This document shows positions 2,681-52,749 of a stretch of DNA of 64,000 nt, in pieces. Position 1 is the stretch's first letter. Each line of letters starts with the position of its first letter. Source of the DNA: Bilabrum cf. latius (Eukaryota); the NCBI GenBank assembly GCA_965178125.1, contig OZ237748.1:992001-1056000 (forward strand), written 5' to 3'. The position numbers and the translations under genes were made by a program. The notes beneath the pieces were generated by a model. The model ran no database searches. It had not been told where the DNA came from and saw only the letters and a program-made list of their open reading frames with translations.

Positions 2681-2746
<66 letters not shown>

Positions 2747-26043: not shown

Positions 26044-29000
26044 TTACCCGACCTCGCCCTCTCGTCCCGCATCCTACTGTTCGACCAGCCCATCACCACC
26101 CTGCTCAGCCGCTTCCTCATCCAGATCGTCCTCTTCTTCCTCTTCATCCACAACCAGCGGCGCGGCGCAGTCCAGCTCGCCCGCCCATTCACCCACGGCT
26201 CCAAGCACCAGCTCCTGCACCACCAAGCGGGGCAACAGCTCCGAATCCTCATCGTCATCCTCTTCACCACCCCGCCGCCCCTCGGCCGCCGCACTCATCA
26301 CACCGTCCAGAAGCGGCCACACCGCAGCCCGCGCCGGGCCCCACCCGCACACTGCTCCCGCCGCCAGCCCCACGCAAGCCAGATCCACCTGCAGCTGCTT
26401 CAATCCACCGGTGGACGCCCGCAGGTCGCCGCTCCGGACCCAACGCAGGAGCGGGCGCAGGGAGGATGCAGCCGCCTGCGCCGCCCACGGCCCCGCCTGC
26501 AGACACTCGTCACCCTGCGAACCAGAGGCAGATCCGGATGCGGAACCGGCGCCGCGCCTGCCCATGCGACCGTTGGGCCCGGCAGCGCCCCCGCCACCAC
26601 TCGTCACACCTCCCCCATCGCCCAGCGCCGCAGCCACAGACGCGGCCACGTCGTGCGAGGGACCTGCACCACCGTGCGATGCACCCTGCTCGCCCCCCCC
26701 CGCACCCAGCCCGTCTCGCCCCGCGTCCATGCCGCCCGCAGCTCCTGGCCCCGCCCCGTCCCCACTCGTCACACCCCCCATGGCCCTCATCGCCCCGGGA
26801 AAGACCCCCCCGCACGCCCCCCGCATCGCCTCCGCCGCCCCCTGCCCCCGCAGCAGCTCCGCCACCCCCTCACTCGTCACACCGGGCCCCCCTCCCCCCA
26901 GCGCCGCCACCGCCGCGTCCCTACCCCGGGCCAGACCCCTCGCCCACACCCGCACCGCTGCCCTGGGCCCCTCGGGTTCGAAACCGGGACCGGGCCTCCA
27001 GTCAGCCGCGCTGGCGGACCGCACCAGCAGTGACCCCAGCTTGCGACCAAGTCCCCGAGCAGCTGCTCCGGCCTCCTCCCCCGCGGCCAGGGAACAAGCC
27101 CTCGCCAGGGCAGAAGCCCCCGCCTCGGCCGCCATGCTCGCGGCCTCGCAGGCCTCGGCCTCCTCCCCCCTCCTGGGGCGGGGGAGGAGCAGCTCCCGGG
27201 GGGTGCGCTTGCGGGGGGGGCTGCGCTTGGGGGCTCTCTTCGTGCCGCCATCTTCATATTCGTCCTCCTGTCCATCGTCGTCATCTTCATCTTCATCTTC
27301 GTCGCCCTCCTCCTCCTCCCCGTCCCCAGGATCCGCGAACAGCCCGCTGCGGACGGATCCCAGCGCACTCGTCACACCATGCGCGCCCCACCACCACAGC
27401 GCGCGGGCACACACCAGACGCCCCACCAGACCCACGTCCAGCGCCACACTCGTCACACCCCCAGCCCCAGGGACGCTCGCCAGACCCGCGGCGTACCCCA
27501 GATCCGCCTTGCCCGCCGCCGCCGCAGCAGCACCGTGCAATGCACCCGTAGAGGACCCCTGCGACAGGGCTGCTGGAGTCCTGCCGAATACCACTCCGGA
27601 TGGAGCGTGGTGTGACGACGACGGGGCACCGGAGGAGCCACCGTCGCGACCAGCACCCCCGTGCAATGCACCCGCAGACGGGCCCATGGCCAGGGCCAGG
27701 AAACCGATTTCGGCTCCGGATCTCGCCCCCTCGTCCCGCGACGCACCTCCCCCCGCGCCGCCGCCGCCGGAAACACCCGCCCCCGCCGCACCCCCCACCG
27801 AGGGCACCACGGGCGCCGCCACCGACTCCCACCCGTCCGCACTCGTCACACCACCACCCCCGCTCGCCAGCCGCCGGAGAGCCGCAGGCACCGCCGCGAC
27901 GGCGTCCCCGACGGCCGCCGCGAGCTAAACCGGAAACGCCCTCCCCAGGTCGGGCAGCGCGCGCATGAGGCCGAGCACCAGAGGGCGGCACCTGCGGCTC
28001 GACTGCGCCAGGGAACACAGGGCGGCGGCGCACGCGGCCGCCGCCAACCGGGGTCCCGGCCGGTTCCGCAAGCGCGGCGCCAGCGCCTCCACCGCCGCGG
28101 CCGCTTGTTCCCTGGCCTGGGCCTCGAACCACCGGCGGGCTGCGGCGGTGGGCGCCCCCGGCCCCAGCCGCATGCCCTCGAGTGGCAGCCCGGGGAGCAG
28201 GGGGGGGGGCTCCACGGGGGTACCCGGTTCCGCAGGGGTTCCGCTGCGCGGCGCCGATGCGGCGGCCCGTCCTGCAGCCGCGTTGTCCATGGCCCCTGGC
28301 GCGGCCAGGACAGCCGCCAGCAGAGCATGAACCGCTCTGCGCCTGCCCGCCCCCAGTGCCCCCTGCACGCCCAGCCGAGCCGCCCCCTCGGCCGCTTCCG
28401 CCCCCCTGTCCCTGAGCCTTAGGCTGGGGGGGAGCTGGGGGGCCAGGGCCTAAAGGGAGACGAGGAGAGTCTGAGCCGCCCTAGAGGCGCGCGCCGGGGT
28501 GTGACGAGCGCCAGGGGAGGCGCATGCCGCGGCGCTCAGGGCCAGAAGGGTCCTTCCGTGGGTCAGCAGGGTGGCCAAAGCGGGTTTGGCCACCTCCGCC
28601 GCGATCAACCCGGCGATGGGCCCTCTGCCGAGCCTGTCGCCCCCACTGCCACCGCTGCCAGAACTGCCTCTGCCTCTGCCTCTGCCTCTCCGACTATGAT
28701 CATCACCATCGTCGCCGGAATGGCTCCCACCTTGCTGGTGCAATGCCCCCCTCACCCGAGCCACGAGAGCGGTTGCACCCGGGGGCAGCGGCAGCGGGCA
28801 GGTGCCCATGGGGACCGCACTCGTCACACCTCCACCCCTGCCACCCTCGCCCCCACTCCCACCCTCACTCGTCACACCCCTCAGCACCCCCTCGGCGGCC
28901 AGGACCCCCTCCCGCAGGGCACCCAGCCAGCCCCCCGCGGCTCCTTCCGCGAACCGATCCGACGCCTGCTCTAGGCCCTCCCCCTGTGCCTCCGTCTGGA

Positions 29001-30981
29001 AGGGGGGGAGGCCTAGAGCAGAGGAAGAGGGTGACCCGGACTTGGAGGCCGGAGGCTTCGCACTCGTCACACCCCCATCACCGCCCCCAGCGGTCCCCGG
29101 CAGAAGCCCGTGCAGCTCCCCGGCGCACAGCCCGCCGCGCCCCGCACTCGTCACACCAAGGCGAGCCGCGGCCGCCTCGAGGGCCCCCCGCAGCCACAGC
29201 AGCAGCAGCGCCCCGACCTCGCACTCGTCACACCCCACCCGCAGCAGCAGGCCGGCCGCCTCCGTGACCTGCCCCGCCCCCCGGAGCGAGCCCAGCCGGG
29301 CGGACTCGGAGCCGGAAAGAGAAGGGGGCTCCCAGGCGGGGGCGCCATCGTGCAGTGCACCCATAGCACCGGCCATCCCCGCGGAATCTTCATCTTCAGC
29401 GCCGTCATCGTCGAGCCCAGAGCGGCGGGCCTCCGCGGCATCTGCCGCCGCGCGCGCCCACGCCGCCGCCGGCTCCAGGCCGGTCCCCGCACTCGTCACA
29501 CCCGAAGCATCGCCGCCCGTGTTCCCCTCTCCCCCCTCCTCCGCCCTGCCTCCATCGCGACCGCCGCCCGCCGCCGCCGCCGCCCCCCACATGCGCCTCC
29601 ACAGCCTGACGCGGAGCCCGGCGGCCGCCATCTCCGTCTCCCGGGCGATGGGCGCCAGCAGCACCCGCACCGCACCGCCGTGCGATGCACCATCCCCCCC
29701 ACCGCCCTCCTTCGATTCTCCCTCCTCACTCGTCACACCCTCACTCGTCACACCCACGGCCCGCAGCCCCTTGACCCCCCCCTCGTAGTACCTCCCCGCC
29801 TGCCCCTCCGCCCCCAGCTCCACCGCCCGACGGAGCCGGGCGGGCAGCCGCAGCAAGGCCTCGAGTCGTCTCAAGCGCCGCTGCTGCCCCAGCAGCCGAC
29901 TCACCTCCTCCCGTCTCCGCCGGAGGGCGCCGTCCACCAAACCGGAAGTGTCCGCCAGCCGGTCCATCCTGCCCCTCAGGGCGGCAGAGGCCTCCCCGAT
30001 GCCACCCGCGGCGCCCCTCACGTCCCGCACCGTGGAGGCCGCGCCGAGGAACCTTCGGTAGTTGGCGTACACGAGTTCCTGCACGCCGCCCAGGAGAGAT
30101 TGCCGCTCCGAATCCAGGCGCAGGCTCTCTGCGGCCAGCGAGGCCACGTCCTTTGATCGGAGCAGATGCCTCACGTACTCCTTGGGCTCCAGCTGCGGGG
30201 AGTCGATGTCGAGGGCCGGGGGGTTGGCCCTGTGTCCCGGGTGCATCTGGGCGGAGGAGGGGGAGGGGCCTTCTTTGCCTCCAGCAGCCGTGTCGATCCT
30301 GCCCAGATCACCCATCCCACCTCCGTTGGTTTGTTGCTCCTCCTCCTCCTCCTCGGGAGCAGAGACACCGTAGAACTGCTCCATGAGAGCCATCATCCTG
30401 CGAGTGGGGGGGGGTGAATGGCGGTGAGTGAGTGGGAGGAGAGTGGGCGATGCACTCGAGGTGCAGTACCATGCTACAAGACATGGACGGGAATGATACG
30501 ATACCAGCCCAGGATGGATCCGCCAAGCGCGACGACGGTAGGAGAGAGACTGGTGTGATGACGCACCGTTTGACGGGTGAAGGACGGCGTGCACGGTACC
30601 AAGATGAAAGCGGAGGATGCAAAGCACACCATGTTGCTGCATATTCGATACGGTATGCCGGCCTACAGATGCGGCGCACCTGTGACAAGATTGCGCTGCA
30701 GCCAAATAGGCTCGCGGGCGTGATGCAACATCCGCATGCGCCAGCATCACTGGCAGCCTAGAGCTATACATCCACGGCGATTTCATTTGCTGTTGTACAC
30801 ATATAACTGAATGATCTGTTCGATCGCTCATGCGTGGAACCGGTGACGCTGGATCCACTGCTACAACAGCGTCTGCAACACCCACGGCTGGCGTTACACA
30901 CGGCAGTGCAACCGCCAAAGTCACTGCGCTAGCTGAGCTCAGATCTCACTTCATGTCATCGTCATCTCCATCTGCTGCCAT
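26044..30981 (-). CDS. VPS51: Vps51 (GARP/EARP tethering complex subunit)-like protein with low-complexity insertions
   Basis: LMEQFYG...DIDSPQLEPKEYVRHLL...LVYANYRRFLGAASTVRDV...LEALLRLPARLRRAV matches the Vps51 N-terminal domain. The main exon ~30397-26044 is one frame across TAG at 28450, 27925, 26074 and ends TAA 26044-26046. A short first exon (ATG 30981, MAADGDDDDM, GTGAG donor) is inferred; 5' exon structure is uncertain. Confidence 0.8.
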
Positions 30982-31765
30982 GCCTTCTGTATTTCAAGAT
31001 AGGCGGAGCTTGCACATCAATTTCCCGAAATTGGTATTTTAAGAATGTACAGTGCTATTCAAAGGGTTCAATCCGGATTCTTCTTCGGTTGCAGTTTAAC
31101 TGGTTTCAGCTGGCGCAACATATATCGATCGGCACTGTAGGTGAGCAAAGTTTGTCATTTACTTGACCTGATCTGATGTTCGAGTTCGCGTTGACACTTG
31201 TCGCGTTGAGCGGATCATAGTTCCGGTTCATGTCTCAATGGGCGAGGCGCGCAGGCCGCCTCTGCCACGCGCTGCGTCAAATGACTGTTTTGTTTGCCGG
31301 AATGCTCGCTGCAGCTGCGTATTTATTGTCTCAGAGCAGTTGAATCTGTAGGTCTACGTTTGACTCTTGCCTGCCCGCAAGCATGTTGCGGTCGGGGCGA
31401 GTCTGCGACTTGGCTTGAGATGCAGCTGCCTGCACCTACTTTGCATGCGCACCGACATTCGCACAGGCCCTGTTTTGCAAATAATCACGGAATTATCTCG
31501 TTTGGCTCAATTAATCGCGGTTGCCTACGCACGGTGCTTCGAGCCTAGCTTGATCCACCATTTGCATCCACAGCCGTGCCCGTTGCACTCCGTCCAGCCC
31601 GGGCAACAACATGCCACATCTTACTTGCAATGCATCGCAGGTCTACGTATACGAGAGTAACGCTTGCTCTCAAAAAAATCCGGCTGAAGCTCGCATTCAG
31701 CACAAACACCCAGGCGCGCTTCCATCCAACGAGGCCTTCCAAAGACCCCGGACGCACTCGTCATC

Positions 31766-34700
31766 ATGGCAGGCTCGCAGCAGGATGACCCGCAGCAGCC
31801 GCCGCGATTCGGGGCCGCAAGCGCGTTCCCGCCAAGCTCCTCCTCCTTGTCCCCGCCCGGGGGCATCAGGGGGGGTGTCGCCGCAGGGGTGGGGTCCGGG
31901 CGAGGAGGGGGCGGGGGGGGCACGCCCCCCAGGGGGGGAGGGGCCGCCGTCCCCCCCTCCTCCTCCCCCGACCGCCCCCACTCGTCACACCACCACCCGG
32001 CCACCCCCGGGGCCATGCAGCAGCTCGTGCCCCTGCTCTCCCACGTGCAGGCCGCCTTCGGGGCCGCAGGATAGCCGCCCCTCCCCCTCCCGCGGGTGGC
32101 ACTGATCGGGGGCCAATCCGCGGGCAAATCGAGCGTGCTGGAGGCCATCGTGGGGAGGCCCTTCCTGCCCCGGGGAACCGATGTGACGACTAGGCGGCCG
32201 CTTGTCCTGTACCTGCAGACGGTGGGAGAGGAGGAGGCGGCGGCCCTCAGGCACGCCTCGGCGGCGGCGGCGGCGGCGGCCGAGGCCCAGCGGCAGCGTG
32301 AGGCGCAGCGGGAGGGAGGTGTGACGAGTGAGGGGGGAGAGGAGGGGAAGGGGGACGGCGTTAGCGGCGGCGCATCGCACTCGTCACAGTCAGTCCCTAG
32401 GCCCCCCCCCGCTCCGGCCAGCGCCAGCGGGGAGTGGTGCGAGTTCCTGCACCGCAGGGGGGAGCGGTTCGTTGATTTCGACGCGGTGCGGGAGGAGATC
32501 GAGAGGGAGACCGCGCGGGTGTGCGGGCCGCAGAAAGGGGTGGATCCGGAGCCGATTCACCTGCGGGTGCACTCCCCCTGGGTGCCCACCCTGACCCTGG
32601 TGGATCTTCCGGGTTTGACCAGGGTGCCTGTGGGGGACCAGCCAGCCGACGTGTCCACCCGCATTGAGGGCATGGCCGAGCGGTATGCCAGCGACGAGCA
32701 GACGCTGCTGCTGGCGGTCACACCAGCGACCGACGACCTTGCCACGAGCGCGGCATTGGAGCTGGCGAGGAAGGTGGACCCTAGAGGGGTTCGAACCCTG
32801 GGGGTGCTGAGCAAGTGCGATCGGGTGGACGCGGGGGCGGGGGCGGCGGTGACTGCGGCGCTGCGCAACGGGGTGGTTCCGCTGAGGCTGGGGTGGGTGG
32901 GGGTGGTGTGCCGGGGCCCGCGGGCGGAGGAGCAGGGAGTCACTTTGCTGCAGCAGAGGCAGCTGGAGAGTCAGTTCTTCGCGCGGCATCCCACGTTCCA
33001 AAGGCTCGGGGGCCGGGCGGGGATCGGGCACCTCGCCCGGAGGTTGGCGCAGACTGTGCTTGAGAGCGCCCGGGCGAGGCTTCCTCGGATCAGGGAGCGG
33101 CTTCAGGCGGAGCTGCTGCACCAGGAGAGGGAGGCGGGGCTGGACAGGGACAGGGGTGTGACGAGTGGGGGTGCTGGTGCGGGGGAGGACGACGGCGCCG
33201 GTGGTGAGGGGGGGGGTTCTGCCGGTGGTGCTGTGAGGGGTGGGCTGCTCTTGTCCCTGGTGAGTGGGTATTCCCGGAGGTACGTGTCCATGCTTGAGGG
33301 GAGGCCGGATGACGAGTACGACGAGGACGAAGATGAAGAGGATGATGGGAACATGGGTGGGCGTGGGCGGGGTGCAGTGCACGGTGGTGCGCAGGAGAGC
33401 AAGGAAGCCTCTTCTCGTGCCCAGGGGGGGCGGGGGCGCAGGGAGGTGCCACGACCCCCGGGGGGTGGGGGCGCTCAGGAGGGGAGTTACCCCGCGACCC
33501 CGGGACCCCAATACGGGGGGGACACCACCACTACCCCCGGGGCCCCCTCCGTGGCCCCCCCCCAATCCACCGTTGGATTGCCCGCGTCCTTCAGAGCCGC
33601 TCAGGCTGCGGCGGAATCCAGGGCCGTGCGAGACGCGGCGAAGGACGGGACCTACGAGAGTGCACTGCACGGCGGTGCACTTGGGGGTGCGTAGGGCGCT
33701 GCCGGGGGGTAGTACGGAGCCAGCGGTCGTGGCGCGGCCGGCGGTGGTGTGACGAGTGGGGAGGAGGGTGACAGGGGCCTGGGAGCACTCCCCCGGGGCG
33801 GGGCCCGGCTGCGGAGCGAGGTGTTTGAGCGGTTCGCCAGAGGCACGATCGAGATGGACCCCCTGGGGGGTTTGGGGACGGGTGACGTGGCGGCTGCGAT
33901 CAGGGCACACACGGGGCCCGGGCCCGACCTGTTCGTTCCCCAGGGGGTGTTCGACTCGCTGGTGCGGAGGCAGGTGCGGAGGCTGGAGCAGCTGGGACTG
34001 GCCTGCGTGCGGCAGGCGTATGACGAGTGCAAGGCGGTGGCGGCGCGGGCGGGCGACGGGGGTGGCTTGCCCCGGTGGGGGCGGGCACGGGAACGGGCGG
34101 TGGAGGAGTGCAGGGCATTGCTGCGCTCCCAGCTGCGACCCTGCGAGGCCTTCGTCAGGCAGCTCATGCAGTGCGAGCTGGCACACGTGAATATCCAGCA
34201 CCCGGATTTCCTGGGGGGCGATGGGGCGCTGGGGAGGGCCAAGGCGTGGGCCGACAGGGTGGGGCCCGCCCTCCTCGTGGACGGTCCTCACTCGTCACAC
34301 CACCGCCACCACTCGTCACACCACCACCACTCGTCACACCACCACCACTCGTCACACCAGGAGCCGTGGGTCCTCCCCGGGGAGGCGCCCCCGAGGGACA
34401 GGGAGGACGAGGCCGCCCTACTCTTCGGGGGCAGGGAACCCAGGGAACAACTGGAGGCGGCGCTGCAGCGGGAGCTCGGTGTGGCGAGTGAGGGCGGCGC
34501 GACGGCCTCCCCTTCCGCGGGTGCGCTGCAGCTGCAGGTGCTGGGGCAGCAGGGCGCCTTCCGGTGCGGCGAGCTGCAGCTGCAGGTGAGCGGTGGGGGC
34601 GGGGAGGACCTGGACGGTGTGACGAGTGTGCCGCTGGACACGGAGGCTCTGCTCGCGCGCCACTGGCCCGTTGCCGCAGCTGTGGCGGGGGCTGTGGCGG

Positions 34701-35878
34701 GGGCGGGGGCCGGTGCGTCCTACCCCCCTGATCACTCGTCACACCGCTCCCCCCCTCAGTCCTTCCCCCGCCGGGTGTGGCTCCCGGCGGAACAGGCCGA
34801 GGAGGCCCGTATGCTTCGAGAGTGCGTGCGGTCCTATGTGACGATTGTGCAGCGGCAATGGGCGGATCTCGTCCCCAAGGCGGTCATGTGCCTGTTGGTG
34901 GGAGCCTCCAAGCAGAAGGTGCACGCCCATCTGGTGCAGCGGATGTACGGGGGCGCCACGGACGCCCAGAGGGTCTGGGAGCGGCAGGGGAGGCCCTCGA
35001 TCCAGGGGCCTCTGTACCAGCTGACCACCGAGACGGGCGAGGCAGCCGCAAGGAGGAGGAGGGCGGGGGCCGTGGTGCGGGCGCTGCGGAGGGCCCTGAG
35101 GGCGGCCGATGCGGTGGCTGCTGCGGAGGAGGGGGGCGCCGCGGGGCTGCTTGGGGGGGGTGGGGGGAATGGGGTGGGGGCGGCGGGGCTGGTGCCGGGG
35201 GGTGTGACGAGTCTGGAGGACGAGGAGGTGGCCATGCAGCAGCAGTAGCAGCAGGGGGGGTATGGGCCGAAGGAGGGAGGCGATGAGTGGAGTGGTGGGA
35301 TGTATGGTGTGACGAGTGCGGGCGGGGGTGCCTCGAACGGGGTGGTGCGGGAGGAGGAGGCTGTGGCGGCGGCTCGGTTCTACGCCTCGCAGCGGGCCCT
35401 GTCTGGCGGGGGCGGGGGTGTGACGAGTGATGGGGGCCTGGGCGTGGGGGTGTCGAATCCGTGGGGCGTGGGGGGATCGGCCTACGGGGTCGGCGGGTGG
35501 GTGATGGAGAGTGTAGGTCGTGTGCCACTGGGCGCGTCCCCGCCGCAGCCTCCCGCCTCGCAGGTGTCGTCGGGGAGGGGTCGCAAGGACGGTGTGACGA
35601 GTGGGAGTGGGGGTGCTCCGGTGGCTGGGGGGCCCCCGATCGTGGGGAGGGGTCCATCGGGGGGTGGGTCTGGTGAAAGTGTGACGAGTGGGTCCAGGGG
35701 CGGGTCCGTGCTGCGTCGGGCGGCGCACGCACCGGCGCACCTGGGTGGGGAGCGGTCGGTGGGTGTGACGAGCGATGCGCACCAGCGTCGGGTCCGCGGC
35801 AGTCCGGGGAGCGTCACTGGGTCTGTGACCGCGGCCGGAAGGGCGGATGTGCCTGCTTTGGGGTCGGGCGGGCGGTGA
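31766..35878 (+). CDS. Dynamin-related GTPase (Drp1/Dnm1/Vps1 type), 1370 aa with TAG=Gln
   Basis: MQQLVPLLSHVQAAFGAAG[TAG]PPLPLPRVALIGGQSAGKSSVLE, LPRG..VTTRRPL, LVDLPGL, LSKCD, ELAHVNIQHPDF, GED SYVTIVQRQWADLVPKAVMCLLV. One frame with TAG at 32072, 33692, 33710, 35246; ends TGA 35876-35878. ATG ~32015 is an alternative start. Confidence 0.9.
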
Positions 35879-36283
35879 GGGTGTCTCGTGTCTGCCTCTG
35901 GCTCGCGCAGCATCATCCGCATAGATCGATCGATGATTGATGATTGATGGGGACGCCGCGGCAGGGATATTTGAGTGTGCTTGCACAGTGCGAAAGGGGC
36001 TTGTTTATCAGTCGGTGCTTGCTGTTGAACTCGAGACCATCGATACCGGAACCACAATGAAACCGGAACCGCGCATCGTTCTCGATCCGATGGATCGAAC
36101 GCAAGAACCCAGGGCTTGGTGCTGCCTACGCTGCGGATGTCGCGCAGTTCCGAGGCCAAGAAAAATACAGATCCGTTCACGTCATCTAATGTGTGGTGAG
36201 TTCCATCGTGATGTCTGCTACTGGCAAATTCTCAAGCGACCAAAGCAACCCTTGCTGCTCGCCTTTCGTTGCGTGTCCTACAG

Positions 36284-41803: not shown

Positions 41804-42369
41804 CGCTTTGCCCTGCAATTCTAAGAGTGCGAGTGTGGGCAAATTCCGAAACTCGAATTGTTGTCGTAGTCGTCACACCTGCATCGTAATTCCGCCGGCT
41901 GAATTCGAATTATTGCAATCCGCTAAACTCGTTTTGGGTTAGGACTTGGGTATTCCAATGAGCGTAACTCAGTCGAGGCTTTATACTGAAGCACCAACCA
42001 GCGCGTGTTACACTCGCTGGGCGGCGCCCCAATGCCAGGCCTGCCCACTGCCACTGCCAGGGCACCATCTTCTTGACATCCAGTGGACCCGTCCGCTCAG
42101 CTTCAACCAGCGTATTGATCTATAATCTTATTGGTTAATTGCGTAATTCATGGTCGACAACATAGTTTCCTGACGGTGCCCACCCTTCATTGTATTATAC
42201 TTGTTGGTGGGGCCAGCAAGGTCTCTGAGATTGAGGTCGCGCGGTGGGCGCAGGACCCGCTCGAGGTGTAAGCCCGATTGGAACAGTACGTGTCGCCATG
42301 GCACCTCCTGTACGATGCAGCGAGACTCATCCGGCTCTTCAGCCCTAACATGCATCACCTGGTAGACTA

Positions 42370-42590
42370 ATGGAGGAGGGCAGTGGAGAGGCCACGAGGA
42401 ATGATGGGTTGGTGTTCCAGGCAGCAAGCAAGGGCAGGCCCATGGAGCTGGCAAGGAGGCTGAGGCTGGGCAAGCTGGCAGGCGGGCTGGAGATGGAGGG
42501 CGAGGTAAAGCACGAGTCGGGCGGCACCAGGGTGGCGAGTCACGTACGATTACATGAAGCTGCTGGAAAAGGCCATGGAGGGCTAAGCTC
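42370..42590 (+). pseudogene. Isolated, degenerate fragment of the RLRLGKL module exon
   Basis: LVFQAASKGRPMELARRLRLGKLAGGLEMEGEV with indels on both sides and no adjoining ankyrin exons. Confidence 0.65.
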
Positions 42591-43057
42591 AAAGTGGAGT
42601 ACTAAATTGTCAAATGTTCTGTACCTTTTATAATTATAATATTGCACTGGAACTTCATTATGGACGCCATCTTGCTCGCGATTGACCTCGCCTTGGTATT
42701 CACGAGGGCCCGTCATTCAATTGGGACCCGCTACAATTCACACAACATGATAGCCACTGGACACGTAGTATCGACCCACTGTGATTTTGAATCGCACGCA
42801 TGTTGCAAAAGATAGTGCAGCTACAGGTGCAGGGCACTGGGGCACTGTCATCACCGTGAAGCTGACCCGGCCTTGACTAGGTCCATCTATCGAGCAGCGG
42901 ACACCACGAACGCAGTAGGCTGTTAAAGTATTTAAGCATGAGGTGTGCACTGTCTGGATTGTGATGCTTCCTTGTTCGCGATCATGTGCTCCCAGCCGTC
43001 ACCAGTTCTTCTGTTCTCAGTTAGTCACCCCCGGCTCCACGTCCAAGCTTTCGCAGT

Positions 43058-44824
43058 AAAGCAGATATTTTCGCAGCAGCTCGTAAAAGCGATATCGGCA
43101 AGATCAAACGGCTAGCAGATGAAGGAGCTGATTTGAACTGCTCCACCGTCGGGGTGGGATACGATGCCATCTTTCGGCTCCGATGCAAGCTGTCTCCTCA
43201 ATTACAACAGGAATATTATAGCGTTGCACCAGTACGCATTCGCAGACACAACATACAGCGCTCCATATTGCAGCAAGAGATGGGAGAGACGCATCTCTCG
43301 AGGCGCTGCTCGAGTGCGGAGCGGACCCGAATGCTCGCACCACAATTTAGGCTGTGCGTACGAGAGCAATACTGGCAGCTGGCAGCGGCAAGACTCTCAG
43401 AATGCATCCAATTAATTCAACCACGATGCAACCTTCTTGGTGCCCTGTCGTATCCCCGCAGGATAATTGGACCCCTCTTCACTACGCAGCTTAGCGAGAA
43501 AGTGGCGCAAAGGCGGTGCGGTTGCTGCTTGAGGCAGGGGCGGACGCAGAGCCAGCTGTCCTCGTTCGGGTGAGTTGATACATAAACACGACTGCTTCGT
43601 GTTTGCCCACGCGGTGCCGTGGATCCGAGTGCCACGCACGGGCCCGTGACCGTGCTGTGTTGCCCTACCACAGCTAGATTAAATCGCTGGTTATTTGCGC
43701 TGCGTGGGCCATGCGATTGAACCTCACTCTCACTCTCACCCTAACCCTCACCCATCATGCCTCTCTGGAGTGCACCAGGACGCAAGATCCGTCCTAAGTT
43801 TCTTGTAGTGGCCCCCCGTATGCTGAACTTTTCGCAGTTCTACAACAGCCCGCTGCACCTGGCCGCCCGATCCGGGGCCTTGGACAGCGTGAAGCTGCTA
43901 GTGGAGGCTGGCGCAGACGTTTGCGGCAGGAACCTAGTGAGTAAATGTCGAGAACATGTCCGCGCACGGCTGGTATGCTGGTGCGGCATGATATAGTGGG
44001 GTTGTTGCAGTTCCGGCTGTAACCATCGGGCGATTGGGAGCCGAGAACTACCACCACAACTTCGGAACCTGCTCGTTTTCTTTGGTATGGTACCAATTCA
44101 CTCGTCACATATCGATCCTCAACCCCCCCCCCCCCCCCCCCCCTCAACAGTCGGAAGAGACCCCCCTCCACGAGGCTGCCACCAGGCCAGACCCAGCCTT
44201 CGTGCGAGAGCTGCTGTGGGCGGGGGCAGACAAGCATGCTCTCGACGTTGTGAGGTGCAGCGCATTGCAGTATTGATGTGTGTCTATGTAGAAGAGCAAG
44301 GTCCTTAGCATATCGAAGTATGTGTTCCCGCCACCTGGCCCCCCCTACTCCAGGCTGGGAACAGCGCCATGCTCCTGGCGGTGTCACAGGGCCACTATGC
44401 GACGGCTGCTTGCATTCGGGACTTCCATCCGATCGTGCCACACATTATTCGATGGAGGCATGCAGTGGAGGCCAAGAGGGACGCTGGGATGATCTTCCGC
44501 GCTGCAGCTGAGGGCAGGCCCATGGAGCTGGCCAGGAGGCTGAGGCTGGGCAAGCTGGCAGGTGGGTTGGAAATCAAGGGCGACCTGGACGACGGGGAGG
44601 GTGGAACCACAGTGGTGGGTCCACTGGAGGCGGCTCGGTTAGGAGGACATGACGAGTGCGTGGAGCTATTGGAGGAGGCAGCCGTGGACGAGCACGATAG
44701 GCGAGCCAGAGCAATCGCGGCCAACAAGAAGAAGCGGCCACAGAGAAAGAAAATCCCGCATCCGGATCAGTTTCCAAATACTGTGATATACCCTGGCTAG
44801 GGTGCTGGGTGCGAACTCAGCTAA
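43058..44824 (+). CDS. Multi-exon ankyrin-repeat protein with RLRLGKL module (first exon not located)
   Basis: Exons encode DIFAAARKSD, HTALHIAARDG...GADPN, WTPLHYAA[TAG 43492], NSPLHLAARSG and ETPLHEAA. Last exon WRHAVEAKRDAGMIFRAAAEGRPMELARRLRLGKLAGGL; reads through TAG 44798 to TAA 44822-44824. Confidence 0.75.
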
Positions 44825-45182
44825 GAGCGGGTATCGATGCAAAGGACAGTGAGAGCTGCCGCTAGAATCTGGGCTGCAAATCGGAGGCCGAGATCCATTT
44901 GCAGCCCTACCAAAGGCACAATCTATTTACAAACTTGAATCATTCGCTTGAATCATGCGCACTTTTTTGATCAGATAGTAGGGACGGAACTGCGTCCTGT
45001 CGTGATCGAACGTTCCTTTCGATGTAGCGTGTCGTTTCATCCCGAAAATCTATAATTATGGGCGTTCGGCTGATGAAGATTGATACGTCAACTGCGGCCA
45101 AGCTCCTCATTCCAGCGCAAGATCAATCCTCTGGTCCGCATATACTCTCAATACGTTGTCGTTGAGCAGCCACACGGACTGA

Positions 45183-45692
45183 CTAAGCGTAAGTTATAAG
45201 CACCTGCTTGTATGGTGCGTCGCACCTCCTCGATTCTGGACTCTGACCTCTTAGTTTGGCACTGTATGGCTTGTGGAGCGCACGAGCCTGTATTTGGTTG
45301 CATTTATATGCATCCACTGTGTTGACGAGGTGTGCTATAGCAATGATGCTCTGATAGGTACACCAGCGGGCAGCTACGTCCACGAAGGTCGTTGCTGAAG
45401 GGTCACCGGTCGGCTGTAGGGTCCAGCTCGCGTGGTAGTTCGTCAAAGCGCCATGCTTTGTTTTGAAATATGTGTTTTTAGCTGCATGCCCGGTATATGG
45501 TCCGAATGCAGCCGGTTCACCTGGCTTCCGACCAGCGACAGCTGGTGCTCGCATGGACCGGTTGCCTCCGTGGCCTTGATGGCATGCAGCTTCCCATTGG
45601 TATCCCATGTGAAGCATGAGCGCCGGTTTGTTATAGTTATCCAACGCCGTGTGTGGAGTTGATCCCCCCCTGCGATGTCCATTCCATTCCAT
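45183..45692 (-). pseudogene. Possible divergent SET-domain fragment
   Basis: FGPYTG ... FVDVA ... AHLVNTVD..CN resembles the SET motifs GEYxG, xDA and RFINHSCxPN. No complete gene model. Confidence 0.35.
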
Positions 45693-45867
45693 TCCATGCT
45701 GCTCCGCCCCTCCCTAGCGCCCAGCACCACCGTCTGTCCCACGTCCCACGTGCCTTCTTGCTTCCCCTCTACTACCACGCGCCGCAGTGACCGCCGGCAG
45801 CAGGTAGCAGGGCTGAACCAGCTGCTCCCACCACCGCGATACTCGTCACACACATCCAGCCCCTTCC

Positions 45868-48800
45868 ATGTCGGAGCACGTGTGGTACCGTCACGCGGCC
45901 GACTGCTGGCGGCTGGGGGCGGTGGCACAGCTGAGGGGGGAGGAGATGCAGGTGCGGGATGCGGAGGACGGGAGCGAGACGGTGCTTCCCCTGACGGACC
46001 CCAAGTCGGGGCAGAAGAACACGCACCCCTGCGACCCTTCCCACCTCCAGGACACAGACGATCTAGCGAGGATGAACAACCTGCACGAGGGGCCCCTGCT
46101 GCACCTGCTGAGGAGGAGGTACCTCGAAGACAAGATATACACCTTCACGGGGCACATTTTGATCTCGATTAACCCGTACTTCCTCATCCCCGGGCTGTAC
46201 GTGATCCCGGAAGGAGTCTCCCACGAGACCAGGCTGGCACGGGACGAGGACAGGAAGCCGCACCCCTTCACTGTGGCCCACCAGGCCTACCAGCAGATGA
46301 GGGAGGAGAGCAATCCGGCCAGGAAGAACCAGTCGCTGATCGTATCGGGGGAGTCGGGGGCGGGCAAGACGGAGGCGTGCAAGCGGATCATGCAGTACCT
46401 TGCCCATCTGAGCGAGACATTCTCCAAGCAGGTGGCGAGGAGATCTTCCCTGGCCAGGAAGAGCGGCAGCATCGAGAAGCGGGTGCTGGACTGCAACCCG
46501 TTTCTGGAGGCCTTCGGGAACGCCATGACGGTCCGGAATAACAATTCTTCCAGGTTCGGCAAGTTCCTCAAGATCGAGTACAGCAACGGGGCCATCGTGG
46601 GCGCGACCATGAGGCACTATCTCCTCGAGAAAGCACGGGTGGTGAGTCCACAAGGGGGGGAGAGGAACTACCACTCCTTCTATATCCTGATGCGCGGCGC
46701 CACCGAGGAGGTCAAGCGGAACCTCGGCCTCACCCGACCGGCGGAGGAATTCGCCTACCTGTCCGCCGGTGGTGTGACGAGGATCGACGGGGTGGACGAC
46801 CGGGAGGAATTCGGGATCGTGTGCACTGCACTGCGGAACGTGGGGCTGCCCGACCCCGTGACGGAGATGCTGTGGGCCACCCTTGCGGGGATCGCCCACC
46901 TTGGCGACATTGCCTTCATCGAGACAGGTGACGATGCCGCCCCCAAAGCTGCCGTGTCAGAGGCGGGTAGGGAGGCGACCGCGTGGGCGTCCAAGCTGCT
47001 TGGCCTGCCGGACATCGAGGGCGGCTTGATCTCCAGGAAGGTAAAGGCCCCAGGGCAAGCCGCCGTGGTGGTGCCTCTGTCCCAGCAGCAGGCCAGGGAC
47101 ACGAGGGACGCGCTGGCCAAGAGCCTCTACGACCGGCTGTTCTCGTGGATCATCGGGCGGACCAATGACTGCGTACAGAGCACGGAGGCGTCCAACGCCT
47201 TCATCGGTATCCTGGACATCTTCGGGTTTGAGATCTTCGAGCATAACTCCTTCGAGCAGCTGTGCATCAACTTTGCCAACGAGAAGCTGCAGAACCTGTT
47301 CAACCACCACATCTTCATCATGGAGCAGGAGCAGTACGAGCAGGAGGGTGTCGATGTGGCGGCCATCGAGTTCATCAACAACCAGCCGTGCGTGGATTTG
47401 ATCGAGAAGAAGCCAGTGGGTCTGCTGCCCATGCTGGACGACGTTTGCGTGCAGGCGGTCAAGGGCATGACGGACACCAAGTTCAAGGGGAGGTTGGACC
47501 AGCAGCACCTGGGCAAGAACAAGTACTACGGCGTGCCTAGGAAGAACAAGCAGAAGCAGTTTGTGGTGCACCACTTCGCCGGGGCAGTCACGTATTCCAT
47601 CTCCGGGTTTATCCACAAGAACAAGGACGCGCTGCACTCGGACCTGCAGAGCATGGCGCACTCGTCACAGTCGCAGCTGGTGGCCAGCCTGTTCGATGAG
47701 TCGGGGACCATGGCCACGGAGCTGCTGCTGAGGCATGGGGGGGGCGTGGGTGCCATCGGTGGACTCAAGGGGCGGGTGGGGGAGCTGCAGGGGGGGGGAG
47801 GGGCCGGTGGGGCCGCGGGGGACTCCCCCTCGGAGGGCGGGGCCGATGATGCGGATAGTGTGACGAGTGCGGCCCGGGGGAGGTCGTCGTCCCCGTCGGG
47901 CCGGTCGGTGCGGTCCGGGTCACCATCGGGTGGCCGCAGCGGGTCACCATCGGTTAGTCGCTCCAAGAGCGGGGCGGTGGGTAGGACAAAGAGCGGCAAG
48001 GCAAAGAAGAAGAAGAAGAAAGGACCCCAGACGCAGACGATCGGCGCCAAGTTCAAGCACCAGCTGGGGGATCTGAACGACACGCTGCTTCAGACCTCCC
48101 CCCATTACGTCCGGTGCATCAAGCCTAACTCGCTCAAGGCCAAGCACAACTTCGACAACCGACGGATCTTGGACCAGCTGCTGTACTCCGGTGTCCTCGA
48201 GACGGTCAGGATCAGGCGGCAGGGCTTCCCCTTCAGAGAGACCTTCACGGAGTTCTGGAGGAGGTGCAACGCGGGCTCGGAGAGCGCGGCCATGAAGAGG
48301 GCCAGCGCGGCTTTGGCCAGGCGAAGATCCAGGGCGATGAGTCGGCAACCCAGGGGTGGATCCATGTCGGCGGGGCCCGGGTCACCAGCCCAGTTCAATG
48401 GCGGTGGTGCCTCCAGCGGGGCGGGGGCGGGTGGGGGTGCGGCGGCCGGTGGCTCTCCCAGGTCCCTCTCCTCCCCTGGTCTGTTGGACGAGTTCACCGG
48501 TGTCCTGGGGGAGTCCCCCCCGGGGGTGCCTGCCCACAACCCCAACGTGCCGGGGTCCATGCCTGGGGGCAGGGTCACGGGGTACAAGCTGCTGATCAAA
48601 GAGACCCACGGGATCCCCGCCCCGCCCCCGCCCCTGTATCAAGAGGTCAAGGAGAAGGGCGGCTCCAGGCGCACCATAGACGCAAGCTAGACGGAGGACG
48701 TGATCGAGCTGTCCAAGGGGGGTACAGAGGCAATCTGCCGTGCGCTGATCCCACCGGACCAGTGGGTGATGGGCAAGACGAAGATCTTCATGAAGGACGG

Positions 48801-51800
48801 GGCCATGGAGAGCATCAGCCTGAGGTACAGGGCGCACCACACCACGAGGATCCAGGCGTGGTGGAGGATGTCACTGGCGAGAGAGAGGTACCACGATGCT
48901 AGGCGGGCGCTGGCACAGGCCAAGGGGATGTGGAGGAACGTGCTGGCGACTAGACGGGCCAAAGCCATGGAGCAGACGGTCGTCAAGCTGCAGGCACTCG
49001 TCAGGGGAAAGCTGGCGAGGAAGCGGGCGGCCAAGAAGAGGCACGCCAGGGAGAACGCGGTGGGGACGATCCAGAGGGTGGTCAAAGGCAACTTGTACAG
49101 GCGGAAGTACCTGGCCAAACGCAGGGGCGCCGTGATGATGCAGTCGATCGTGAGGATGAGCCAGGCCGTCCGTCTAGCTGCCAAGCGAAGGTGGCTCTGC
49201 ATCCGGGTTACCTCCATCATCAGGGGCTGGCGGGCCAGGCGACTGGCCAGCCGGAGGAGGCGGGCGCTGAGGGAGGGCTGCACTAGGATCCAGGCGGCGT
49301 GGAGGGGGCTGTCCGCCCGACGAACGTTCGCCGCGAAGCGCAAAGCGGCCCTGCTGCTTCAGGCGCGGGTGCGCGGGCGGAACCAGCGGCGAACGTTCGT
49401 GAAGCAGCGGAGGGCCGCCGTGATGCTGCAGTCGCTGGCCCGCGGAAGGGCGGCGCGCGTCCGCTTCACCCGGCAGCGCGCCGCAGTGCAGTGCATGCAG
49501 CGGTGCGCCCGCCGCTGGCTCAGCATCGCCCAGCACAGGCGCAGGCAGAGGGCGGCGAGAAAGATCGAGAGGTGCGCCGATGCGTGGCTCGGCAGGCGGG
49601 CGCTGGACAGGTGGGTGCAGGACCTGCAGGCGGCGGCGAGCTGGGGAGATGTCGCGGAAATTTCCTCGGTGCTCGGCTGCGAGGACGGCCGGCTCCACGG
49701 GCGGCTGCGCGGCATCCCGCTGGCCTCCCGGGTCGCGATCCGGAGCCGATTTGACGGGAAGAGCGCGCTTCACGTGGCGGCCGCGGGGGAGGAGGCGGCG
49801 GTTCGGTTCCTGCTGCGGGCGGGTGCCGATCCCCTGGCTCTGGATCGGGCGGGCCAGACTCCCCTTCACAAGGCGGCCGCGGTGGGCGATTCGCACGTGG
49901 ACGTGGCCCGGGGGCTGCTGGAGGCCAGCGAGAGGGGGAGTACCGGTGTGACGAGTGGAGGGCGTGCGGCTCTGCTGGCGCAGACGGACGGGCGGGGCGA
50001 GACTGCGCTAGACACGGCTGTGCGGGAGCAGCGAAGGACGAGGAGGAGGACGCACGCCAAGATGATCCGGCTCCTGCTGGAGGCGGGGGGGGAGGCCCGT
50101 GCCACGAGGGGGGGCACAGCTGCGGTGAGGAGGCTTGTAGGGACCTTGGCACCGGAGGCGAGCGGGAGCCGGGCCTGGCTGGCGAGGGAGGAGAAGGCAT
50201 GGGAGCAGCAGCAGCAGCAGAGGGCGGAGGACCCGCACTATCAGCTGCTGCTGGTGCAGGAGCAGGAGAGGAAGAAACAGGCCGAGAGAGAGAGGGTCAG
50301 TCGGGGGGTCAGGGAACAACGGGCGAGGAGGGACGGGGCGCTGGCCAACGCGGAGTGCAGGCGGATGGCAGCAGAGGACAGGATCTCCCGGGGTCTCAAC
50401 GCGATCTGGAGGCAGCTCGAGGACGGGGGTGTGACGAGTGCTGGGGGTGGGGGTGTGATGAGTGCGGGTGTCCCTGTGCCCCGGTCCGCTGGGGCCCTCC
50501 CCAAGGCGCCCTCTTCCGACGATGCGGGCGGTTGGAGGAGCGGTGATGGTGTGACGAGTGCGACACCCGCCCGGGTGCCCGGCGCGGCGGTGGCGTCTGC
50601 GGTGGCTGTCGTCGCGCCCGAGGCGTTCGGCGGTGCGGTGCACCGGGGGTCTGGATCCAAATCTGGGTCGGGGTCTGGGTCTGGGTCTGGATTTGGGTCG
50701 GCGCGCTCGGACCAGGCTGCGGTTGGATCGGAGCAGTCCACCGGTGGATTGCCCCAGACGGAGAGACCTAGGGGGCAGGAGGGGGAGGGGGAGGGGGAGG
50801 GGGAGGGGGAGGCGGCTCTATCCGATGGATTTCACAGCCGGGGCCGGGACCAGGGGTGGAGCGAGACCCGGGGTCAGTTTGGCGGGGGTCAGTTCGAGTC
50901 CCAGTCCCAGTCCCAGCCACACGGTAAGCCGAGGCAGTAGTTAGCAGCAGATACGATCGATAGTTATGCGAGAGGAAAATCCGCCGCCGCTGGATCGTCG
51001 GTTGAGCAAGGATCGTCGGTTGAGCTGGACACGTTGTTCCGCGAGAGGGGCGGGGTTCGATCCAGGCGGGAGAGGGAACAAGCCGAGAAGGATGCACTGC
51101 ACGGTGGTGCAAGCAGCCCGCACCCAGGCCCGGAGGCAGCAACGGAGGCGGGGCGTCTGGCGGGTGCATCGCATGGTGGTGCTGACGGTAGGCAAATGAT
51201 TTCGGGCAGTTCCGGAGTCTCGGATGATGTGACGAGTGCACGCCCCCGCTGGGAGCAGGACGGCCTCACGAGGCAAGAGAGGGAGAAGCAAGCAGAAACA
51301 GACCCAGGCGAGAGGAAGGCCACCGAGCATCAGAGGCAGGAGCAGGAACAGGAGCAGGAGCAGGGACAGCCATTGGCTCAATCCCACCGGTTGCAGCCGC
51401 AGCCGCAAGGTTCTCCGTCCCTGTCCCTGTCTCAGTAGCAGCAGCAGCAGCAGCAACAACAGGAGCGGACGCCTGCCAAAGGGGGCGCTAGAGGGTACAG
51501 CCCCGCCCCCGTCATGGGGACGCGCTCGTCACACGCTTAGAACTCGCCGCAATACCGGTAGCAGCAGCAGCAGCAGCATAGCGCGCCCGTTGGTGTGACG
51601 AGTGCGGCCCAGATGGTGCTGCCGCGCACCGGAAGCAGCCGGAGCATCGGGGGCGGCGGTGTGACGAGTGGCAGCCGCATGCCGCAGGGCCCCCGCGTCT
51701 ACTCGCCCCTCGCCGAGGCCGTGCGGGGGAGCAGCGGTGTGACGAGTGGTAGCGGGTCGGGCACGGGCAGGTCGAGCGGCGGCGGCAGTCGCTTTAGCCG

Positions 51801-52749
51801 TGTGACGAGTGCATCGACCCCTGGGACCAAGCCGTCGCTGGCCGAGGCCGTGCGATCAGCCTCGTCCTCGTCTTCGTCTCTTTCGCACACCGGGTCTGGC
51901 CGCGGGCTGGGTGTGACGAGTGGTATCGGACAGGGGCGCAAGCAGCAGCGCGGTGTGACGAGTGAAGGGACCCCAGTCTCTAAGCAGGCGTCCCAAGGTG
52001 CATCCGCCGGCGCCTCACTAGATATAGCAGCAGCAGCATCATCATCAGCATCGAGCATGCACGCTTCCTCGGCCCCTGCCCCTGGCCCTGCTGCTTCTTC
52101 TCCTCCCGCGTGGTCCATCCACCAGTCGAGCTCCACAGGCCTGCTGTACTACCACAATCGTCACACCGGCAAGACCCAGTGGGACGAACCCGCGGACCTC
52201 GACTGCCAGTACGAGGGATGGCAGCTGGCCGTGCTCCGTGTGACGAGTGAGGCGTTCAGGAGGCACGCGATGCCGGCCGCCACGGAGCTGCACGCCGCCA
52301 GGGAGCGGGTGCAGGCGCAGGAGCGAGAGGCCAAGCGGCTGCAGGAGGCGGCCGAGAGGAGGGCGGGGTACGGTGTGACGAGTGCTACGGCTGGTGGGGA
52401 TGTGGCAGGTCTGGCGGGTGCTTCCGCAACAGACGCTTCTTCATCTGTGGAAGGTGCACCGCACGGTGGTGTCCCCGGCCGGTCGGACCGCCTCGTGCTG
52501 GAGCACGCGATCCAGGGTGCATCGAACGGCAGCGCACATCACTCGTCACACCACCCCGCTAGATCCAGTGGTGAGGAGGCCCCGTATGACCCCGAGCAGG
52601 ACGCTAGCATGTGGAGCGCGCACGAAGACGAGGAGGGGCACCTGTTCTACTACAACGCGAGGACGGACAGGTCGGTGTGGGAGAGGCCGGCCTGTCTGGG
52701 GCCAGTGCCTGCCGGGTATGAGATGGTGGGTGGTGTGGGGGGCAGGTGA
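45868..52749 (+). CDS. Unconventional myosin: motor - IQ repeats - ankyrin repeats - two WW domains (2293 aa with TAG=Gln)
   Basis: GESGAGKT, LEAFGNAMTVRNNNSSRFGK, LDIFGFE, NEKLQ, PHYVRCIKPN, MGKTKIFMK; multiple IQxxxRG; SALHVAA/TPLHKAA; WW domains WSIHQSSSTGLLYYHNRHTGKTQWDEP and WSAHEDEEGHLFYYNARTDRSVWERP. One frame with TAG at 48688, 50938, 51436, 51538, 51559; ends TGA 52747-52749. Confidence 0.93.

Follow-up and report, generated by a model that had tools for sequence, protein, structure and literature searches.

Some bacteria carry short exact words far above chance in many unrelated genes. The uptake signal sequences (USS) of Pasteurellaceae and the DNA uptake sequences (DUS) of Neisseriaceae are exact words of 9-12 bases present in hundreds to thousands of copies, many of them genic, and according to the consulted portion of PMC2817400 their coding copies occupy tolerated reading frames, encode residues of low conservation and are missing from genes acquired recently. 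The highly iterated palindrome HIP1 (GCGATCGC) of cyanobacteria is a palindromic octamer linked to cognate methyltransferases (PMC4390886, in the portion consulted); it is hyper-abundant inside and between open reading frames (ORFs), conserved between genomes, and no peptide or RNA role was supported for it in the consulted portion of PMC5861425. Here we describe a eukaryotic sequence with a similar pattern, a 12-base word (CACTCGTCACAC) that recurs in the coding regions of three genes (Vps51-like, dynamin-family and myosin) within a 64-kb stretch of a Bilabrum cf. latius contig (OZ237748.1, positions 992,001 to 1,056,000; hereafter the window, with coordinates counted from its first base).

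Like USS and DUS, the Bilabrum word is an exact genic word that shows a frame bias, placement in protein inserts, inflated counts of one tetrapeptide (GVTS) and absence from the retrotransposon and lineage-specific families of the window, as far as the account in the consulted portion of PMC2817400 allows the comparison. It differs in that its host is a eukaryote, with dynamin, myosin, Vps51, WW and ankyrin proteins, and not a competent bacterium, and we do not assume that the same process drives it. At 1 per 385 bp across the three genes, its density exceeds the per-genome figures for uptake sequences in that portion of PMC2817400. The word shares with HIP1 its hyper-abundance, its occurrence inside and outside ORFs and its conservation between organisms; unlike HIP1, it is 12 bases long and is not its own reverse complement. 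A preliminary description of this DNA had proposed that selection acts on the DNA of the word and had likened it to DUS and HIP1: the constraint at the DNA level was borne out, and the analogy is apt for the pattern and does not extend to membership of either family.

Two eukaryotic systems invite comparison as well. In Caenorhabditis elegans, periodic A/T clusters reportedly act as licensing marks of germline genes, and human intronless genes are said to contain export elements within their coding regions. The word resembles both in consisting of many short cis elements in gene bodies, of a kind proposed to separate proper genes from silenced or spurious transcripts, and its host genes are intronless and lie among repeats. 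Those marks are degenerate and dependent on orientation or phase, whereas the word is an exact 12-mer found on both strands and inside codons, and is known from sequence alone. No description of the word or of a eukaryotic equivalent was found in the portions of the full-text literature searched, supplementary motif tables not being covered; as far as found, the exact-word pattern is known from bacteria and not from eukaryotes.

Counted on both strands of the window, CACTCGTCACAC has 41 exact copies (dinucleotide shuffles yielded 0.01 on average and never more than 1) and 66 matches with at most two mismatches where 5.55 were expected. All exact copies lie inside three ORFs, encoding Vps51-like (14 copies), dynamin (14) and myosin (13) proteins. 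Earlier counting by eye had given about 45 copies, roughly 15 per gene; their dispersal through the three genes holds, the exact total being 41, and of the coordinates given then only 35417 needed correction, to 35418. The specificity of the word is sharp. Across the three genes the mismatch spectrum runs from 41 sites (no mismatch) through 13 (one) to 3 (two), and the 17 sites with three mismatches are close to the shuffle level of 12.4. Neighbouring copies are 15 to 978 bases apart and their flanks are unrelated, with only a G at position -1 (37/41 copies) and a weak downstream preference for G extending beyond the 12 bases; the core is ACTCGTCACA, and the G-rich strand usually carries the 13-mer G+GTGTGACGAGTG. 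A minisatellite or tandem repeat was rejected on the grounds that there is no constant period and the flanks are unrelated, local arrays being confined to 34289-34357 (HSSH peptides separated by HH(R)H spacers, with a period of 18-21 bases) and the pair at 29727 and 29742. A transposable element or miniature inverted-repeat transposable element was likewise rejected, nothing longer than the word being conserved apart from the G preferences.

Codon choice separates the DNA word from the peptide. On the sense strand, 33/34 copies read xGT GTG ACG AGT and a single copy reads TGT GAC GAG TGx, and all seven antisense copies read CAC TCG TCA CAC. These bear out the readings of the preliminary description, the 33 sense copies giving GVTS (or, here, SVTS or RVTS), the copy at 29222 CDEC and the antisense copies HSSH; the readings ARHT (28499) and NRHT (52155, within a WW domain) also stand, both at one-mismatch copies. 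Across the three proteins, 30 of the 31 GVTS peptides are encoded by the single codon string GGTGTGACGAGT, for which the per-site probability is 0.004 given the codon usage of the same genes outside the motif, and all seven HSSH peptides are encoded by the exact word (per-site probability 0.010), so that synonymous variants are far from equally common. When the synonymous codons of the three genes were shuffled 1000 times, with protein sequences and per-protein codon counts preserved, the word arose 0.58 times on average and never more than 5 times, compared with 41 observed copies. Elsewhere in these genes GGT accounts for 21% of Gly codons, and AGT and TCA for 7% and 6% of Ser codons, in agreement with the earlier remark that the word forces codons these genes otherwise disfavour. 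Single-mismatch copies include both synonymous changes and non-synonymous ones (GVAS, GVMS, DVTS). Because one codon string dominates GVTS and HSSH and both orientations are enriched, and because in a related organism (described below) copies also lie outside ORFs and the same word is kept despite a different base composition, the constraint acts on nucleotides and not on the peptide.

The three host genes are open only when TAG is read as a sense codon. With standard stops all three regions are broken, and with TAG as sense each becomes a single uninterrupted ORF that requires no introns. Pfam searches identified a Vps51/Exo84 N-terminal domain in the first, Dynamin_N, Dynamin_M and GED in the second, and Myosin_head (7e-207), IQ, ankyrin and two WW domains in the third. 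Several other ORFs in the window, including those at 982-5052 and 23602-25635, also need TAG as sense. TAG codons are found within CAG runs (e.g. CAGCAGTAGCAGCAG near 35241, and the runs near 51430-51580), and because they are placed inside these poly-Gln runs TAG likely encodes Gln in this nuclear code, with TAA and TGA as the remaining stops; the sole TAG in an aligned SMC segment, a single column, faces Arg of bacterial Smc, a position uninformative as to its meaning. Scans of the window for tRNA genes and Rfam families returned nothing. The search with the dynamin gave no homolog above ~49% identity, and the best named matches of the myosin motor, at 40-45% identity, are from Triparma, Pythium, Phytophthora and Hondaea, all of them stramenopiles, which we take only as a lead for placing the organism. 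In practical terms, gene callers need TAG as a sense codon for this lineage.

Copies occur in both orientations, with 34 sense and 7 antisense exact copies in the window. Background proto-sites have sense:antisense ratios of 68:22 at four mismatches and 319:123 at five, so the 3-5 fold sense excess is about what a G-rich coding strand offers and the bias is explained by composition. The frame giving GTG TGA is never used, and the CDEC frame is rare. To place the copies on the proteins, eight dynamin and seven myosin homologs were aligned. Columns occupied in no more than 25% of homologs contain 10/16 motif peptides of dynamin and 12/15 of myosin; such columns make up 42% and 35% of the respective proteins, and no invariant column coincides with a motif peptide. 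GVTS runs are absent from the nine nearest myosin homologs examined. Copies are thus placed in lineage-specific, loosely constrained protein inserts.

Within the window, the word is also restricted to particular genes. The three genes hold 41 copies in 15.9 kb; the remaining 48.3 kb of the window has no exact copy and three one-mismatch copies, one of which encodes HSSH at 44099 in an ankyrin ORF. Proto-sites with three mismatches occur at a similar density in the two fractions (37 in the 48 kb remainder vs 17 in the 16 kb of genes). The GC content (G+C) of the three copy-bearing stretches is 63-75% and that of the remaining contig 46-59%. Near-absence from the transposons, lectin genes and ankyrin genes had been claimed earlier, and indeed there is no exact copy in any of them. 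The near-copies that had been reported just before ATG codons were found at 31755 and 45840, and the third, at about 41870, is a two-mismatch site (41867) at the chance level.

The same word is present in a second organism. Metagenome contigs were scanned for two word copies lying 3-33 bases apart, which gave at least 120 loci; among the matches listed, many are unrelated short-period tandem repeats, e.g. (GTGTGACGA)n, as judged by flank identity. Of the 120 loci listed, 21 from three metagenome projects were set apart, the remaining 99 not being individually classified, and 19 of these are non-redundant (101 kb, GC 0.53-0.62). Their long ORFs need TAG as sense, with up to 30 TAG codons in an ORF of 2708 aa. 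A lineage-specific protein domain is common to these contigs and the ankyrin-family ORFs of the window at 56-79% identity, and no orthologous DNA common to the window and the contigs was found, which indicates a related organism and not the same one. The 19 contigs contain 64 copies of the identical 12-mer, with unrelated flanks and mostly read as GVTS, so the word is the same in both organisms although the proteins they share are only 56-79% identical. The copies lie in non-domain parts of HECT, triose-phosphate-transporter-like (sugar-phosphate transporter), SET, WD40, GH39, NUDIX, DUF268 and alpha/beta-hydrolase genes. Within ORFs of at least 300 aa, 38 copies are sense and of the GVTS type, 2 are sense and of the CDEC type and 13 are antisense (4 HSSH, 5 LVT and 4 TRHT). 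The other 11 of the 64 are outside such ORFs. Non-ORF copies in four contigs (L108, L093, L020, L082) form tandem doublets to quadruplets with spacers of 3-9 bases and have no coding appearance; one spacer in L108 is TAA, the L108 triplet lies ~35 bases 5' of an ATG, and the L093 array also precedes ATG codons. The word is thus orientation-independent and homotypically clustered, as expected of binding-site clusters. A spliced-leader relic, considered because of these tandem copies 5' of ATG codons, was rejected: the units of 15, 17, 22 and 21 bases share only the 12-mer and their spacers differ.

Some metagenome matches are distinct from these dispersed copies. Three unrelated contigs (L026, L028 and L116) contain a perfect head-to-tail (GTGTGACGAGTG)x4 array with identical flanks, and many other matches are repeats with a 9-base period that contain the word. 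A scan of a viral collection for the word returned two matches, both low-complexity and CA/TC-rich.

Individual sites were followed in two orthologous proteins, compared at the protein level. In a 355-aa protein with 91% identity to the myosin tail, all seven xVTS peptides and the HSSH peptide are retained (8/8), although 32 of 358 aligned positions differ and the differences include residues directly beside one copy; at the background rate, the 32 motif residues would all stay unchanged with a probability of ~0.04, which is weak evidence. The second, a 115-aa fragment, matches the ankyrin region at 73% identity. Judged from these two proteins, sites appear to be retained between close orthologs, and one site differs in the more distant comparison.

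Other sequencing data contain the same copies. Unitig contigs of a DNA run (X4, possibly the source sample itself) tile positions 26000-45999 without a difference, except for gaps at 42121-42474 and 44048-44653 that contain no copies. Pieces of the Vps51-like and dynamin genes, motif copies among them, were found, again with 0 differences, in contigs of three further runs (X5-X7, which are only guessed to be RNA) from two other studies filed under two other organism codes. The array region 34201-34411 differs between data sets, with one X6 contig lacking 18 bases and small indels around 34313-34345. In X4, depth rises 20- to 50-fold at motif-rich bins and hundreds of contigs match in part; these spikes and partial matches indicate that many other loci in the X4 data share the word, and they are the indirect view that we have of its spread through the whole genome. 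A mini-intron or excision scar, suggested by the GT...AG within the word, was rejected, as contigs from all four runs keep the copies, the copies are in frame and no other observation favours it. Separately, the occurrence of identical gene pieces from 26000-45999 in runs filed under two other organism codes suggests that this organism seems to travel with or in other organisms' samples. The word is usable as a marker of the lineage in metagenomes.

Nor is this the only word of its kind. The relative contigs had not been chosen by means of CAGGGAACA, and they contain 34 copies of it where 1.3 are expected (order-3 Markov model), in 15/19 loci, on both strands and in all frames; in the window it has five copies, all in the three word-bearing genes, and none in the other 48 kb. 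In the relatives, the palindrome GGTTGCAACC, the strings around GGCGCCGCGCA and a handful of further words exceed their expected counts 20- to 70-fold, AATTCCGAAT is likewise enriched, and such extra words are partly in non-coding DNA; ATCCGGAATC is also listed among the relatives' enriched words, without a score. A looser motif, GCAyyGCAyGryGGyGC, occurs seven times in the three genes of the window and seven times in the relatives, with consistent GCA and GGT codons, and contains the near-palindrome GTGCAnTGCAC, which together with CGGTTGCAACCG represents the palindromes among the weaker co-occurring words. There may therefore be a vocabulary of words rather than a single word; at least CAGGGAACA behaves likewise, and perhaps others do.

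Taken together, the constraint on nucleotides, the use of both strands, the non-coding copies, the placement filter and the conservation across species argue that the word would be read on double-stranded DNA. The reading that we prefer, tentatively, is that it is a high-density binding-site mark of resident genes, for which the retention of sites at 91% identity, the homotypic non-coding clusters and the absence from neighbouring repeats despite available proto-sites are the main arguments. The word would be recognised sequence-specifically, by a protein whose footprint covers ~12 bp or by a nucleic-acid guide. Core genes of long residence would maintain it at high density within their bodies and in some cases immediately 5' of them, while transposons and expanded lineage-specific gene families would stay without it. 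The protein would decide persistence, with copies surviving only in loose inserts and in frames that yield harmless peptides (GVTS; less often HSSH, TRHT or LVT). The mark would then label resident genes or shield them, for instance from the silencing of neighbouring repeats. We infer both the binding factor and this role from the sequence pattern.

Several points weigh against a binding-site mark. Its functional half, the reader and the mark, is only what we infer, and the restriction of the word to core genes is drawn from three genes of a single 64-kb stretch. The densities in the relative are biased upward because its contigs were selected by the motif, having been chosen for two nearby copies. 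In those contigs the GVTS frame is ~9 times as frequent as any single antisense frame compared with a ~3-fold proto-site excess, and the larger figure allows an additional sense-strand or peptide preference. An exact word of 24 bits is unusually sharp for a typical transcription-factor site. Finally, the 73%-identical fragment has GDIG in place of GVTS, so fixation of individual sites is not ancient, an outcome that drive and selection on density explain equally well.

A wider form of the same idea is possible, if doubtful: a limited set of exact words, comprising GTGTGACGAGTG, CAGGGAACA and maybe more, spread through the coding sequence of resident genes and read on double-stranded DNA, may enable the cell to distinguish genes that it has long carried from transposons and DNA arriving from outside, in which case silencing, recombination or repair machinery could act as the reader. 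If so, this would be the first eukaryotic counterpart of the bacterial self-words DUS/USS or HIP1, and a non-coding code superimposed on the genetic code would have left a measurable imprint on the proteins of the lineage. Should a reader for the word exist, it would amount to a second information layer in eukaryotic coding sequence, one that fixes rare codons and inserts a tetrapeptide dozens of times in housekeeping proteins, and it would give a handle on how a genome separates its own genes from selfish or foreign DNA without introns or small-RNA memory.

Instead of a function, molecular drive may have produced the word: biased repair, gene conversion or templated insertion would favour word-carrying alleles without any organismal role, copies would build up at every place that the protein allows, and the oldest DNA would hold most copies, an evolutionary logic shared with bacterial uptake sequences. 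We regard this as rather unlikely but serious, as it explains the same pattern about as well as the anti-silencing, nucleosome-positioning, insulator or self-mark functions that the preliminary description put forward as possibilities. The observations match the account of uptake sequences in the consulted portion of PMC2817400: copies are in inserts, none are in the retrotransposon or expanded families, and orientation follows the proto-sites. Drive would also accommodate a site that differs between 73%-identical orthologs while the word is constant across species, and the over-representation of several unrelated words together. We know of no eukaryotic drive process with a 12-base specificity of this kind. 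None was found in the literature searched, and the unrelated flanks mean that the moved unit would be only 12-13 bases. The eight sites kept at 91% identity are equally predicted by selection, and for HIP1 the conservation of sites was taken as evidence against replenishment by biased repair (PMC5861425, in the portion consulted). Pure drive would represent the first eukaryotic accumulation resembling that of uptake sequences and would point to a repair or conversion process with 12-base specificity.

It is improbable that the word functions at the RNA level, with GGUGUGACGAGUG in the mRNA bound by an RNA-binding protein or guide RNA and additive copies aiding export, stability, localisation or translation of intronless mRNAs. 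Sense copies do outnumber antisense copies (34:7 in the window, 40:13 in the relatives), GVTS-frame copies exceed the proto-site prediction, the host genes need no introns and copies form homotypic clusters. However, enrichment is not confined to the transcribed strand: the window has 7 and the relatives 13 exact antisense copies where ~0 are expected, one antisense HSSH is kept in the 91%-identical ortholog, and the G-rich sense strand alone would give about the observed sense bias. Moreover, the oriented non-coding copies (45840, 31755 and L108) face their downstream ATG in the direction opposite to that of coding sense copies, and no RNA family matched the window.

A role of GVTS (and HSSH) as a short linear motif for modification or docking, with DNA identity left over from recent copying, is close to refuted. 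The word does resemble linear motifs and low-complexity repeats in being a recurrent tetrapeptide of disordered linkers with some local tandem arrays; one frame accounts for 33/34 sense copies, and the motif peptides are unchanged in the 91%-identical ortholog where flanking residues change. Unlike a linear motif, in which the peptide is fixed and codons vary by usage, it has fixed codons (30/31 GVTS by one string), its reverse complement is enriched too (HSSH, joined in the relatives by TRHT and LVT), copies lie outside ORFs, its nucleotides are identical in a relative of much lower GC, and its single-mismatch copies change the peptide as well as the codons.

Equally hard to credit is a supply of off-frame stops, by which the +1-frame TGA in GGT GTG ACG AGT would halt slipped ribosomes in GC-rich TAG-sense genes: 33 of the 112 TGA/TAA stops in the +1 frame of the three genes are inside copies (13/32 in the Vps51-like gene), but twelve fixed bases are more than one TGA requires, antisense copies have no stop in any frame, non-coding copies are left unexplained, CAGGGAACA has no stop, and in the relatives other TGA-containing strings do not replace the word. 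A technical artefact (adapter, barcode or assembler) or an ordinary tandem or low-complexity repeat has a negligible probability: many of the listed two-copy metagenome matches are indeed unrelated short-period tandem repeats, and the two local arrays in the window are of this appearance, but the copies are in frame inside conserved genes with unrelated flanks, the word occurs in three metagenome projects, and as far as contigs, rather than raw reads, show, four runs from three studies agree across the copies without a difference. The RNA, peptide, off-frame-stop and artefact explanations thus each fail at least one test. Against this background, the window and the relatives together (41 copies vs 0.01 expected; 64 copies in 19 contigs) place the word far above chance in many unrelated genes, in tolerated frames and at poorly conserved residues, and, within the window, absent from the retrotransposon and lineage-specific families, as for USS and DUS.

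Table 1. Coordinates of the word, its host genes and other features of the window.
Feature	Position	Strand	Remarks
Vps51-like ORF, 1595 aa	26044..30831	-	3 in-frame TAG; TAA stop; GC 0.72; PF08700 2.6e-9; 14 exact copies
Exact copy, Vps51-like	26598..26609	+	GVTS on gene strand
Exact copy, Vps51-like	26763..26774	+	GVTS
Exact copy, Vps51-like	26871..26882	+	GVTS
Exact copy, Vps51-like	27366..27377	+	GVTS
Exact copy, Vps51-like	27447..27458	+	GVTS
Exact copy, Vps51-like	27840..27851	+	GVTS
Exact copy, Vps51-like	28818..28829	+	GVTS
Exact copy, Vps51-like	28866..28877	+	GVTS
Exact copy, Vps51-like	29061..29072	+	GVTS
Exact copy, Vps51-like	29145..29156	+	GVTS
Exact copy, Vps51-like	29222..29233	+	CDEC, other open sense frame
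Exact copy, Vps51-like	29490..29501	+	GVTS
Exact copy, Vps51-like	29727..29738	+	GVTS; next copy 15 bases away
Exact copy, Vps51-like	29742..29753	+	GVTS
Partial copy CACTCGTCA, then TC (9/12 bases)	31755..31763	+	5 bases 5' of dynamin ATG
Dynamin-family ORF, 1370 aa	31766..35878	+	4 in-frame TAG; TGA stop; GC 0.72; 14 exact copies (8 sense, 6 antisense)
Exact copy, dynamin, antisense	31979..31990	+	HSSH
Exact copy, dynamin (insert A region)	32319..32330	-	GVTS
Exact copy, dynamin	33156..33167	-	GVTS
Exact copy, dynamin	33747..33758	-	GVTS
Array of 4 exact antisense copies, dynamin	34289..34357	+	Starts 34289, 34310, 34328, 34346; HSSH
Exact copy, dynamin	34617..34628	-	GVTS
Exact copy, dynamin, antisense	34733..34744	+	HSSH
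Exact copy, dynamin	35307..35318	-	GVTS
Exact copy, dynamin	35418..35429	-	GVTS
Exact copy, dynamin	35592..35603	-	GVTS
Exact copy, dynamin	35679..35690	-	SVTS
One-mismatch copy TACTCGTCACAC (11/12), non-coding	45840..45851	+	28 bases 5' of myosin ATG
Myosin ORF, 2293 aa	45868..52749	+	5 in-frame TAG; TGA stop; GC 0.66; 13 exact copies (12 sense, 1 antisense)
Exact copy, myosin motor variable loop	47858..47869	-	SVTS
Exact copy, myosin, loop between ankyrin repeats	49946..49957	-	GVTS; GDIG in 73%-identical ortholog fragment
Exact copy, myosin	50429..50440	-	GVTS; one-mismatch copy (GVMS) at 50453
Exact copy, myosin	50549..50560	-	GVTS
Exact copy, myosin	51593..51604	-	GVTS
Exact copy, myosin	51659..51670	-	GVTS
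Exact copy, myosin	51737..51748	-	GVTS; peptide retained in 91%-identical ortholog
Exact copy, myosin	51800..51811	-	RVTS; retained in 91%-identical ortholog
Exact copy, myosin	51911..51922	-	GVTS; retained in 91%-identical ortholog
Exact copy, myosin	51953..51964	-	GVTS; retained in 91%-identical ortholog
Exact copy, myosin	52238..52249	-	RVTS; retained in 91%-identical ortholog
Exact copy, myosin	52373..52384	-	GVTS; retained in 91%-identical ortholog
Exact copy, myosin, antisense	52540..52551	+	HSSH; retained in 91%-identical ortholog
CAGGGAACA	27088, 28009, 28114(-), 34441, 50310	both strands	Also relative loci L002-L115
GCAyyGCAyGryGGyGC	26682(-), 29358(-), 29688(-), 33374, 33662, 51094, 51166		Reads xALHGGA, ASHGGA or AVHGGA
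Reverse transcriptase ORF	982-5052		6 TAG; no copy of the 12-mer
Tyrosine recombinase ORF	5365-6150		No copy of the 12-mer
Two-mismatch look-alikes of the word	6801, 7462		Chance level
B-lectin genes, repeated domains	11667-12533, 16441-18126	-	
(AAG)n/(CTT)n microsatellite	~14.2-14.8 kb		~90 overlapping 10-mers
Segment RRAVEGKRDAGRIFRAAAEGRP..., beside ankyrin repeats	23884-24033, 37675-37830, 44441-44578, 62569-62667		
Assembly gap	59765-59964		200 N

The rest of the window consists of B-lectin genes, ankyrin-family ORFs, a retroelement and unassigned ORFs. The adjacent reverse transcriptase and tyrosine recombinase ORFs form a pairing that we take to be a DIRS-like retroelement. A role of the word as the target or attachment site of this element was considered and rejected, the only resemblances being the two look-alikes listed in Table 1. 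In the lectin genes, the string CACTCGTCATCACGGG was examined as a possible motif and rejected, its five copies being a segment of the repeated B-lectin domain that reads CALVITGD; it shares nine bases with the word, apparently by chance. The long microsatellite gives rise to poly-Arg and poly-Leu pseudo-ORFs and to a strong local GC and AT skew. The protein segment beginning RRAVEGKRDAGRIFRAAAEGRP, which occurs beside ankyrin repeats in four ORFs of the window, is also encoded by two of the relative loci (L064 and L108), at 56-79% identity.

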